Of a stretch of DNA of 64,000 bases, positions 5,015 through 29,030 are shown in pieces. Every line of letters starts with the position of its first letter. The stretch's first letter is position 1. Under the pieces are notes generated by a model. The model ran no database searches. It was not told the DNA's origin and was given only the letters and a program-made list of their open reading frames with translations. A program made the position numbers and the translations under genes. Origin of the DNA: a virus (Duplodnaviria; Caudoviricetes); IMG/VR virus record IMGVR_UViG_3300031519_000013, positions 20,032 through 84,031 of that record. One strand, written 5' to 3'.

Positions 5015-5292
5015 CTGATGAAGAGCTGAGAGCACAGATTGAACTGTTGATTCGTGATGAAATTCAAGAGGTCATCAACTCCTATGTTGAAGAACAAAAT
5101 AAAAGTTCTCCTGAGGGTGAACTTGGTTTCATCACTCCTGACGAACAGAAGGAGATGACAGTGAAGATTAAGAATGTAGAGATCGATAAACTCATGAAGG
5201 AGTATAAGCAGATTAAGAAGGAAGAGAAGTCAAATATATCTGAGATTAAGAAACTGGGTCTCGTAGACAAATTTGGCAATCCACTTGACTAA
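5011..5292 (+). CDS. Hypothetical protein
   Basis: 93-aa ORF, ATGA overlap. Confidence 0.75.
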   Translation: MTDEELRAQIELLIRDEIQEVINSYVEEQNKSSPEGELGFITPDEQKEMTVKIKNVEIDKLMKEYKQIKKEEKSNISEIKKLGLVDKFGNPLD

Positions 5293-5313
5293 ATAAGAAA
5301 TGAGGTCTATAAT
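5285..5313 (+). promoter_or_regulatory. Consensus sigma70 promoter for the riboswitch transcript
   Basis: TTGACT 5285-5290, 17 bp, TATAAT 5308-5313; predicted +1 near A5320; late-type CTAAATA at 5289-5295. Confidence 0.85.
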
Positions 5314-5319
5314 AGACCT

Positions 5320-5546
5320 ATCGTTCATCCGAGAGATCGGACGCAAGTAAGTCGCGGAACGGAGTCGTTCATCCCATGATTGAATTTCTTCTATATTCAT
5401 CACTCAGTTGTTCTGATGCCGATAGCATTATGCTACGGATAAAGAGAAACGAAAATCTTAGCAATAAAGTTATGATTGAGTTAGTAGAAACCGTAAAGGA
5501 ATCTACACCTGAGTGCTATTGGGACGCACACGATTGAAGGAACGGG
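5320..5546 (+). ncRNA. Glutamine riboswitch class I (glnA motif)-like RNA, split/nested form
   Basis: AUCGUUCA-[UCCGA gaga UCGGA]-CGCAAGUAA-GUCG (5320-5354) ... CGAU-UGAA-GGAACG (5531-5544); matches the recalled class I layout P1-P2-GnAAGUAA-P3-UGAA-P1'; upstream of a DUF4278-like gene. Confidence 0.75.
5376..5537 (+). CDS. 53-aa protein enclosed by the aptamer halves (not in ORF track)
   Basis: MIEFLLYSSLSCSDADSIMLRIKRNENLSNKVMIELVETVKESTPECYWDAHD*; GGAG at 5361-5364. Confidence 0.7.
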   Translation: MIEFLLYSSLSCSDADSIMLRIKRNENLSNKVMIELVETVKESTPECYWDAHD

Positions 5547-5608
5547 AAAACACGGATCCTGCGAAAGCAGAGAAGGTTAATTTTCACCCAACTTTCAGGA
5601 GTAAATTC

Positions 5609-5752
5609 ATGACTACTATTACTTACAGAGGTCAGCAGTACGATAAAGAGGCGTACAAAGCCAGTGTGTTGGAGCAAGCAACGCAACAACGCAACCACAA
5701 TCTAATGTATCGTGGTATTAAGATCGAACGTAAGTTCGCATCTAAGAGCTGA
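5609..5752 (+). CDS. DUF4278-like small protein (IF17/GifB-related)
   Basis: AGGAG 5597-5601; MTTITYRGQQY...LMYRGIK with two YRG motifs. Confidence 0.7.
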   Translation: MTTITYRGQQYDKEAYKASVLEQATQQRNHNLMYRGIKIERKFASKS

Positions 5753-5759
5753 TTGTTAC

Positions 5760-5786
5760 GGGAGGTTTCATAACCTCCCTTTTTTT
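5760..5786 (+). terminator. Intrinsic terminator closing the riboswitch unit
   Basis: GGGAGGTT-tcat-AACCTCCC then T7. Confidence 0.9.
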
Positions 5787-5896
5787 GTAAATTATTACGG
5801 AAACTTCATTAAGTTAGCATACGCTGACTAAATATTAATAGAATTGGAGAGTTAATGAACTAAAATCATTATTACCGTTCTATATGGAGAATTATT

Positions 5897-6333: not shown

Positions 6334-6480
6334 ATGAAAGACAAGAAAGCAGCTAAAAAACTGATTAAGCGGTTTAAAAAGCATCCTGATTGGTATACAC
6401 AGGAAGAAGTATTGTATGCTAAACTTATTAAAAAAGAATTGAAACATAATGAATGCACGACTGATCACAGCGACTCCTGA
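6334..6480 (+). CDS. Small basic hypothetical protein (not in ORF track)
   Basis: Manual translation MKDKKAAKKLIKRFKKHPDWYTQEEVLYAKLIKK...*, overlaps thyX start. Confidence 0.65.
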   Translation: MKDKKAAKKLIKRFKKHPDWYTQEEVLYAKLIKKELKHNECTTDHSDS

Positions 6481-7084
6481 TGCCGAAAAAACTATGGCAT
6501 ATGTTGCCAGAGTTTCTAATCCAAACAATCAAGACAATGAAAAATATGCAGGACTTCTAGGTTACTGCATCAAGCATCACCATTGGTCTGTGTTTGAGCA
6601 AGCATACATGACACTGGAACTGACTACCACCAGAGGGTTGGCAGCTCAGGTTCTACGTCACCGTTCATTTACATACCAAGAATTTTCACAACGCTATGCT
6701 GATAGTTCCTTATTGGCACCACAGATCCCTGTTCCGAAACTGCGAAGGCAAGATAAAAAGAATCGTCAGAATTCTACGGACGATTTGGATGACTTTCATA
6801 AGCAAGAGTTTGAGATAGCTATTGAAAGGCACTTTGCTTCTGCGATGGATCTATATCAAACCATGCTTGATCATGGAGTGGCAAAGGAGTGTGCTCGTTT
6901 TGTCCTCCCTTTGGCAGTACCAACAAAAATCTATATGACAGGCTCATGTAGGTCATGGATCCATTATATCCAATTGCGAACAGCAAATGGTACACAACAA
7001 GAGCACATGGATCTTGCTAATGATTGTAAGAAGATCTTTATTGAACAGTACCCTACTGTTGCCGAAGCATTAGAATGGAAGTAA
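6449..7084 (+). CDS. thyX: FAD-dependent thymidylate synthase
   Basis: HWSVFEQA, QVLRHRSFTYQEFSQRY signature, KECARFVLP. Confidence 0.97.
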   Translation: MNARLITATPDAEKTMAYVARVSNPNNQDNEKYAGLLGYCIKHHHWSVFEQAYMTLELTTTRGLAAQVLRHRSFTYQEFSQRYADSSLLAPQIPVPKLRRQDKKNRQNSTDDLDDFHKQEFEIAIERHFASAMDLYQTMLDHGVAKECARFVLPLAVPTKIYMTGSCRSWIHYIQLRTANGTQQEHMDLANDCKKIFIEQYPTVAEALEWK

Positions 7085-28727: not shown

Positions 28728-28993
28728 AAAAAGTTAAGATTACTCCCGAAACTTATCAAAAGATGGAAGATGAGTTCCGAGAAGAAGGACTTGCTTTTAC
28801 TATTACCATTCCTACACAGGAAACGATTGATAAGTGGCAAAATGCTACTCCTATCCCTCAACCAGTAAGACATAACGTTGATATGGTTGCTGATATGTGG
28901 GCAGAGCACAATAGGATAGAGGAAGAACGTAAATTACAACTTGAACTTAATTTATGCCCGTGTAGTCCAATTGGCAGTAGACACGAAACTTAA
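28724..28993 (+). CDS. Hypothetical protein overlapping the tRNA 5' half
   Basis: GTG start; its TAA stop is the tRNA anticodon. Confidence 0.65.
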   Translation: MKKVKITPETYQKMEDEFREEGLAFTITIPTQETIDKWQNATPIPQPVRHNVDMVADMWAEHNRIEEERKLQLELNLCPCSPIGSRHET

Positions 28994-29030
28994 AATTTCG
29001 ACAGTATCGGTTCGAGTCCGATCACGGGTA
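28956..29030 (+). tRNA. trnL: tRNA-Leu(UAA), short variable arm, no encoded CCA
   Basis: Acceptor GCCCGTG/CACGGGT, D stem GTC/GAC, anticodon arm CGAAA-ctTAAaa-TTTCG, T arm ATCGG-TTCGAGT-CCGAT, A73. Confidence 0.9.

Follow-up and report, generated by a model that had tools for sequence, protein, structure and literature searches.

A candidate glutamine-I riboswitch of T4-like cyanophages with two interlocked cores around a conserved gene

Riboswitches are understood as non-coding leaders in front of genes, and the locus 5320-5545 described here raises the question of whether such a sensor can enclose a whole gene and share bases with it. The window, which is the whole stretch of 64,000 nucleotides analysed, comes from an 84-kb IMG/VR record; the host of the element is a T4-like cyanomyovirus with relatives in the Kyanoviridae. 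An earlier note, made from the letters alone, had proposed that two halves (5320-5354 and 5531-5544) together rebuild a glutamine aptamer around an open reading frame, and all the motifs that it listed were located at these coordinates. From the comparison of phage sequences, we read the region 5320-5545 as a cyanophage form of the glutamine-I riboswitch with two interlocked cores, and not as one aptamer accompanied by leftover strands. The coordinates of the features are collected in Table 1.

The near-consensus sigma-70 promoter announced by the earlier note is found at the expected place, its hexamers are kept in the phage relatives, and its position predicts a transcript start at about A5320. 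A perfect palindrome of 17 nt, AGGTCTATAATAGACCT (5303-5319), is centred on the -10 hexamer and may act as an operator or fold into a hairpin at the 5' end; several relatives have comparable palindromes around the -10. The only match in the window at the Rfam gathering thresholds is a tRNA gene (28956-29030, 56.1 bits). Farther downstream, a 211-residue ORF (6449-7084) contains a stretch RHRSFTYQEFSQRY and resembles a flavin-dependent thymidylate synthase (ThyX); this putative ThyX would fit the surroundings of the element in relatives, where genes of nucleotide metabolism (nrdB, td, talC) are found.

Table 1. Features of the candidate two-core element and of its transcription unit in the window.
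Feature	Position	Strand	Remarks
Sigma-70-type promoter	5285-5313	+	TTGACT 5285-5290, spacer of 17 nt, TATAAT 5308-5313; 11/12 matches
Outer core, P1 5' strand CGUUC, then A5327	5322-5326	+	invariant in 64/64 sequences; the MFE fold pairs it with 5540-5544
Outer core hairpin (P1a-1) UCCGA-GAGA-UCGGA	5328-5341	+	stem covaries among relatives
Core linker CGC, then AAGUA 5345-5349 (loop E 5' strand)	5342-5349	+	invariant
P2 5' strand A-GUCG	5350-5354	+	pairs with 5531-5535 across 176 nt; covariation
Inner core 3' strand GGAACGG	5356-5362	+	invariant; shares bases with GGAG (5361-5364), the Shine-Dalgarno of the nested gene
Inner core 5' strand CGUUCA	5366-5371	+	hairpin with 5357-5361 (nested fold) or P1 with 5540-5544 (side-by-side fold)
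Inner core hairpin (P1a-2) 5' strand UCCCA	5372-5376	+	pairs with 5520-5524, covaries; start codon begins with A5376
Nested gene, gp197 family (phrog_504)	5376-5537	+	53 codons and stop; full-length phrog_504 match, E 2.8e-27
P1a-2 3' strand UGGGA, then inner linker CGC	5520-5527	+	encodes W-D-A; third-codon-position variation 0.019
P2 3' strand CGAU-U	5531-5535	+	covariation with 5350-5354
UGAAG: loop E 3' strand and nested-gene stop (UGA 5535-5537)	5535-5539	+	stop at this exact spot in nearly all loci
Outer core, P1 3' strand GAACG, then putative capping G5545	5540-5545	+	invariant; in the MFE fold
Conserved hairpin with internal loop	5550-5578	+	stem CUGC 5559-5562 / GCAG 5567-5570, GAAA loop
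AGGAG (5597-5601) and DUF4278 (IF17-like) gene (5609-5752)	5597-5752	+	PF14105, 26.1 bits (cut-off 25.3)
Intrinsic terminator, end of the unit	about 5760-5786	+	8-pair stem, then T run

The glutamine-I and glutamine-II riboswitches are already known (PMC2864571, PMC6212724, PMC6698751). The members of the glutamine-I class (RF01739), for example the leader of gifB/IF17 in Synechocystis (PMC6212724, PMC2864571), share with the phage element a P1 helix CGUUC/GAACG, a hairpin following an A, an ACG linker, a loop E formed by AAGUA and GAA on both sides of P2, a long-range capping pair, putative in the phage element, and a position in front of a DUF4278/IF17-like gene. In the window, P1 can be formed by 5322-5326 and 5540-5544, with the reservation that a second identical pair of strands exists and leaves the partner ambiguous. 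The hairpin with its covarying stem comes directly after CGUUCA and is followed by the linker CGC. The strands AAGUA and GAAG (5536-5539) flank P2, the loop-E pairs being predicted and the covariation concerning P2 itself. A DUF4278 gene lies downstream. By analogy with the solved glutamine-I and -II structures (PMC6698751), G5343 would correspond to the ligand-site G and C5344 to the long-range capping partner. The capping positions C5344 and G5545 show no variation in the phage set and are G and C in the cyanobacterial members, so that the pair would be C:G here and G:C in 18 cyanobacterial glutamine-I aptamers, which fits a pair swapped between the two lineages. The phage form differs further from the glutamine-I class by a P2 that closes across 176 nt and not over a small hairpin, by a second core with a translated gene and by the sub-threshold score of the window.

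This score is 27.6 bits with the model RF01739 (cut-off 35) and is obtained only in a compact register, 5320-5365, by a permissive scan of 5200-5800. The model RF01704 gives 20.3 bits (cut-off 33), and the alignments of both models are included in the compact unit 5320-5369. Ten of the 14 annotated phage relatives display the same sub-threshold matches, and no glutamine model reaches its Rfam threshold in the window or in these 14 relatives. The picture is different for the IMG/VR loci that are free of the insert and where the second hairpin is closed by a plain tetraloop. Those that were scored (L024, L068, L051, L059 and L043) reach 43.6, 42.9, 40.3, 40.2 and 38.4 bits with RF01739 (gathering threshold 35 bits), all in the nested register; two insert-free loci also reach 34-36 bits with RF01704. 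The nested-register alignment runs through the first CGUUCA, the hairpin, ACGCAAGUA and AGU, then leaves a gap of 38-48 nt and resumes with ACU and GAAGGAACG. Because these relatives pass in the nested register, we attribute the sub-threshold score of the window to the 176-nt insert and not to the core. The recognition by an Rfam glutamine model that the earlier note had called for is therefore obtained for the insert-free relatives and only below threshold, in the compact register, for the native sequence. The contig of one insert-free element also carries, at L024:1021-1116, a PhotoRC-II RNA (57.1 bits, above threshold).

The assignment to glutamine-II (Downstream-peptide motif, RF01704; PMC6698751) was considered in the same manner. 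This class has in common with the phage element the CGC linker, a capping pair C:G (putative in the phage) and DUF4278 peptides encoded downstream, and the 5' unit aligns to RF01704 at 20-30 bits, with the window and the 14 annotated relatives all below the cut-off. However, the P2 stem of that class, whose loop supplies GGAACGG, is reduced here to at most 2-3 pairs around this motif, and the phage element has a loop E.

The long-range helices are documented by a broad set of relatives. In the window, the motif [AG]AAGGAACG has only two occurrences in 128 kb (both strands). The same layout is present in 14 of 14 annotated phage relatives and in approximately 120 IMG/VR loci, the latter recovered by a pattern scan, and covariation was compared over about 130 phage loci. 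The common form of P2, the helix that the earlier note had named P3, is GUCG/CGAC; GUCA is accompanied by UGAC in 5 of 5 loci and AUCG by CGAU in 2 of 2, while GUCG/CGAU (the window) and GUCG/CGGC represent wobble variants. The stem UCCCA/UGGGA, which according to the same note clamps the start of the ORF, lies where it was placed and also covaries (CCCCA/UGGGG, UCCUA/UGGGA); in four loci (L045, L016, L053, L071) it is replaced by a wholly different stem of 6-11 pairs. Both helices for which covariation had been predicted thus display it. In a formal count over 64 distinct sequences, 99.9% of cells are paired, five pairs show compensatory changes and none of 500 shuffles equals this result; controls with slid partners give 28-54% pairing. 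Phage S-SSM7 (L487 264-470) is the sole relative seen without an obvious P2, since both strands contain GCCGAC and are not complementary, a state that may reflect an exchange between the two cores.

The minimum free energy fold of 5320-5547 (RNAfold) is nested and contains the outer P1, the first hairpin, the inner GAACG/CGUUC hairpin and the UCCCA/UGGGA stem. Folding energy alone does not support the structure: 5320-5547 has a modest z-score of -1.8 and the downstream leader one of 0.0. Taken together, the above-threshold scores of the insert-free relatives, the covarying helices and the nested minimum free energy fold uphold the reading of the two halves around a whole gene as an aptamer of glutamine-I type.

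Inside P2, the hairpin formed by GAACG (5357-5361) and CGUUC (5366-5370) with its GGAG was found as the earlier note described it. The description of these strands as spare has to be revised. With the stem UCCCA...UGGGA and the CGC that follows it, they complete a second full core (CGUUCA, hairpin, ACGC, GGAACGG), and because this core is as invariant as the outer one we interpret the region as a double aptamer. Each half-set would provide a CGUUC/GAACG helix, the G of the ACG linker and a helix-capping base, which by analogy are the ligand-site bases of the solved structures (PMC6698751). A-to-G changes in the inner GGAACGG would retain wobble pairing, yet two scans of IMG/VR (2.9 million viral contigs) recovered no such variant; when U-to-C variants of the inner CGUUC were sought in two IMG/VR scans, all matches were unrelated. 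In the nested fold, the inner core corresponds to a permuted aptamer located at the far end of P2, whose 3' strand precedes its 5' strand, which lacks a loop E and which holds the ORF in its hairpin loop. In the side-by-side fold, the two cores swap their P1 partners. Two IMG/VR loci (L089 and L130) contain an additional insertion of 60-100 nt that separates the GGAACGG of the inner core from its CGUUCA and marks a third insertion-tolerant site.

The enclosed ORF has, on comparative grounds, the properties of a protein-coding gene that is translated. The opposite reading, in which the insert would be a non-coding variable region and the ORF fortuitous, could draw on the protein itself, which is without a Pfam family and for which Foldseek against the PDB gave nothing at E <= 0.001. 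It is contradicted by the mean pairwise differences at codon positions 1, 2 and 3 (0.41, 0.19 and 0.55, respectively, in 89 distinct sequences), by an average of 4-5 stops in the two other frames, by insert lengths that vary in steps of three (153, 156, 159 and 162), by the full-length phrog_504 match and by the presence of the gene in a single copy in 311 cyanophage records. Moreover, GGAG precedes the start in 114 of 120 loci with the ORF and in none of nine without it (p = 2e-10, phylogeny uncorrected). We consider a fortuitous ORF extremely improbable. The protein is predicted to form two helices (pLDDT 79), with C12, E35, C47 and D53 invariant.

The gene and the RNA overlap at both ends. 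The start codon is included in the inner stem, whereas the final codons (DA[N/H]D) and the stop form the 3' core of the aptamer, the bases UGG GAC GCA A/CAC GAC/U UGA being at the same time the inner linker, the P2 strand and loop E. This overlap is also what would favour another reading, in which only the compact 5' element functions as RNA and the 3' half (5520-5545) is conserved as the protein tail W-D-A-[N/H]-D. However, third positions vary at only 0.019 over the final six codons, compared with 0.55 in the body of the gene, an approximately 30-fold difference. The silent changes in P2 occur only alongside a change of the pairing partner, and a D-to-G replacement is accepted where it restores pairing (CCCCA/UGGGG). 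The RNA sequence of the 3' half is unchanged where the ORF is absent and where it ends 28 nt early (S-CAM1, L038), and the different protein families found in the slot all end with DAND, their stop codon occupying one RNA position in nearly all loci. Since the silent sites are frozen, the P2 changes are paired and the RNA is kept without the ORF, the data contradict conservation as a protein tail, to which we attach hardly any probability.

A more serious alternative is that the working state is a side-by-side (tandem) fold, or an alternation of this fold with the nested one. Aptamer 1 would then extend over 5320-5365 and aptamer 2 over 5366-5545, with P1 helices 5322-5326/5357-5361 and 5366-5370/5540-5544, the gene in the hairpin loop of aptamer 2 and GUCG/CGAU as a bridging pseudoknot. 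The compact fold suggested as a rival by the earlier note is real in the sense that RF01739 aligns to 5320-5365; both glutamine models align to the unit 5320-5369 and to the equivalent unit in the 10 relatives mentioned above, and unit 2 alone scores 30.9 bits in one locus (L050). Tandem glutamine riboswitches are common, with 157 doublets and 4 triplets described (PMC9481103), and unit 1 is transcribed first. The constrained folds have energies of -60.2 (nested), -58.7 (nested with P2) and -56.6 kcal/mol (side by side), a gap of only 2-4 kcal/mol. Because all four P1 strands are invariant, covariation does not distinguish the nested pairing of P1 from the side-by-side one. Against a tandem working state, every single-unit score is below threshold whereas the nested register passes, and the placement of AGUA and GAA on either side of P2, as in a normal glutamine-I aptamer, is obtained only by joining unit 1 (5' half) to unit 2 (3' half). 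In addition, the first 56 nt to emerge are predicted to form the inner hairpin (5357-5361/5366-5370) and not the P1 of unit 1. On balance, we judge the tandem working state rather unlikely and retain the nested arrangement of the two cores.

Concerning the region behind the aptamer, the 5550-5578 hairpin is located between it and the next ribosome site. Six of its seven pairs keep pairing through two-sided changes in 23 relatives, its folding energy not being distinctive, and it is probably part of the expression platform. Its sequence ACGGAUC ... GAGAAGGUU echoes the ACGGA and GAAGG strings of glutamine aptamers. Approximately half of the relatives are devoid of this hairpin and have in its place a short CCUAAA...UUUAGG leader, whose pairing could mask the downstream ribosome site; in the window, no anti-Shine-Dalgarno pairing is definable for the downstream gene. 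This gene also matches phrog_5049 (E 5.4e-20), and the relatives contain a DUF4278 or a gp198-type gene in the same slot. In cyanobacteria, glutamine riboswitches switch on genes of the DUF4278/IF17-like class (PMC6212724).

These observations lead us to propose, as the probable organization, a two-core riboswitch that encloses a translated gene and in which glutamine sensing and translation of the nested gene compete on one RNA. Both cores would bind glutamine. A ribosome starting at 5376 would need approximately 5356-5395 in single-stranded form and would melt the inner core, and a ribosome reading to the UGA at 5535 would melt P2, loop E and the outer P1. Since an initiating or elongating ribosome would have to open the inner core, P2, loop E and P1, the folding of the sensor and the translation of the nested gene would be mutually exclusive. 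High glutamine would hold the fold shut and decrease the synthesis of the nested protein; it would also increase the translation of the downstream IF17-like DUF4278 gene, as in the known glutamine-I/II ON switches. The phage would in this way tie a small early operon to the nitrogen status of its host. A more elaborate version is tentative and, in our opinion, doubtful as a whole: a glutamine switch with two sites, gated by the ribosome and having opposite outputs (inner gene off, IF17-like gene on), in which translation of the inner gene erases the sensor and the ratio of the two proteins is set by host nitrogen, possibly with a manipulation of the host glutamine synthetase.

Structured RNAs that tolerate a whole ORF and RNA folds that depend on translation both have precedents. 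Group I introns carry homing endonuclease ORFs in peripheral loops and their helices still close; these are ribozymes with mobile endonuclease genes, whereas the phage RNA would combine a ligand sensor with a conserved protein of 53 residues that shares core bases. In leader-peptide attenuators (trp, erm), the translation of a short leader ORF decides the fold of the RNA; unlike the nested gene, the peptides are short and usually unconserved as proteins, and these systems contain no aptamer for a metabolite. The literature on glutamine riboswitches covered by our search contains no description of interlocked cores or of a gene inside an aptamer, in agreement with the earlier note, which knew of no such report; the study of Ames and Breaker 2011, reportedly the first demonstration of binding, lay outside this search. 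The searched part of the Weinberg 2010 supplements contains no text on nested forms. The tandem glutamine riboswitches likewise place two cores in one leader. PMC9481103 treats its tandem forms as individual riboswitches placed one after the other and assigns a separate expression platform to each, whereas the phage cores share P2, are only 2-4 nt apart and are able to exchange P1 strands; the words nested, interlocked and phage are absent from that article. Cyanophages (PMC9964418) and further marine phages (PMC9004378) are known to carry glnA motifs. Among the cyanobacterial aptamers examined by sequence after a search of 151 genomes, none of 18 is interlocked or holds an ORF, all being plain and single. 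When bacterial and archaeal genomes were scanned for GGAACGG-N2-4-CGTTCAT, the matches listed were all chance occurrences, none of them in a riboswitch context. What was known thus comprises glutamine riboswitches, their tandem forms and their phage copies, and what is new is the interlocked form enclosing a gene.

In this form, the sensor and a protein gene are carried by the same RNA, the last codons and the stop of the gene being the predicted ligand-site strand. Because sensor and gene share bases, ribosomes and ligand would have a single structure as their common target. Among marine T4-like cyanophages this layout is widespread. Standard annotation with Rfam fails to detect it in the ORF-bearing members that were analysed (the window and the 14 annotated relatives), and virome counts of glutamine riboswitches are underestimates. 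The element offers a natural test case for the closure of a long-range aptamer in translated RNA, for sensing by two cores and for the reading of host nitrogen status by a phage.

The slot of the nested gene is occupied in some relatives by a family of 64 residues, which is homologous to the gp197 family (hhalign 97%, a value partly aided by the shared RNA-encoded tail); separate insertions of the nested ORF families were rejected for these two largest ones. In the Syn9-like phages (L001:490-705 in Syn9, and L006, L010, L011 and L014), the first aptamer hairpin encloses the gene gp196 (phrog_6471), which is unrelated to gp197. Its AUG, which has no Shine-Dalgarno sequence, is separated by about 13 nt from the transcript start predicted there, and its UGA stop is included in the 3' stem strand; start and stop are both within stem strands. 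The corresponding stems covary (UCUCA/UGAGA, UCUUAU/AUAAGA, UCUCAC/GUGAGA). Finally, the annotation of Synechococcus phage Sf-CH5 (PV340852.1 156701-157815) places a homing endonuclease within the homologous region.
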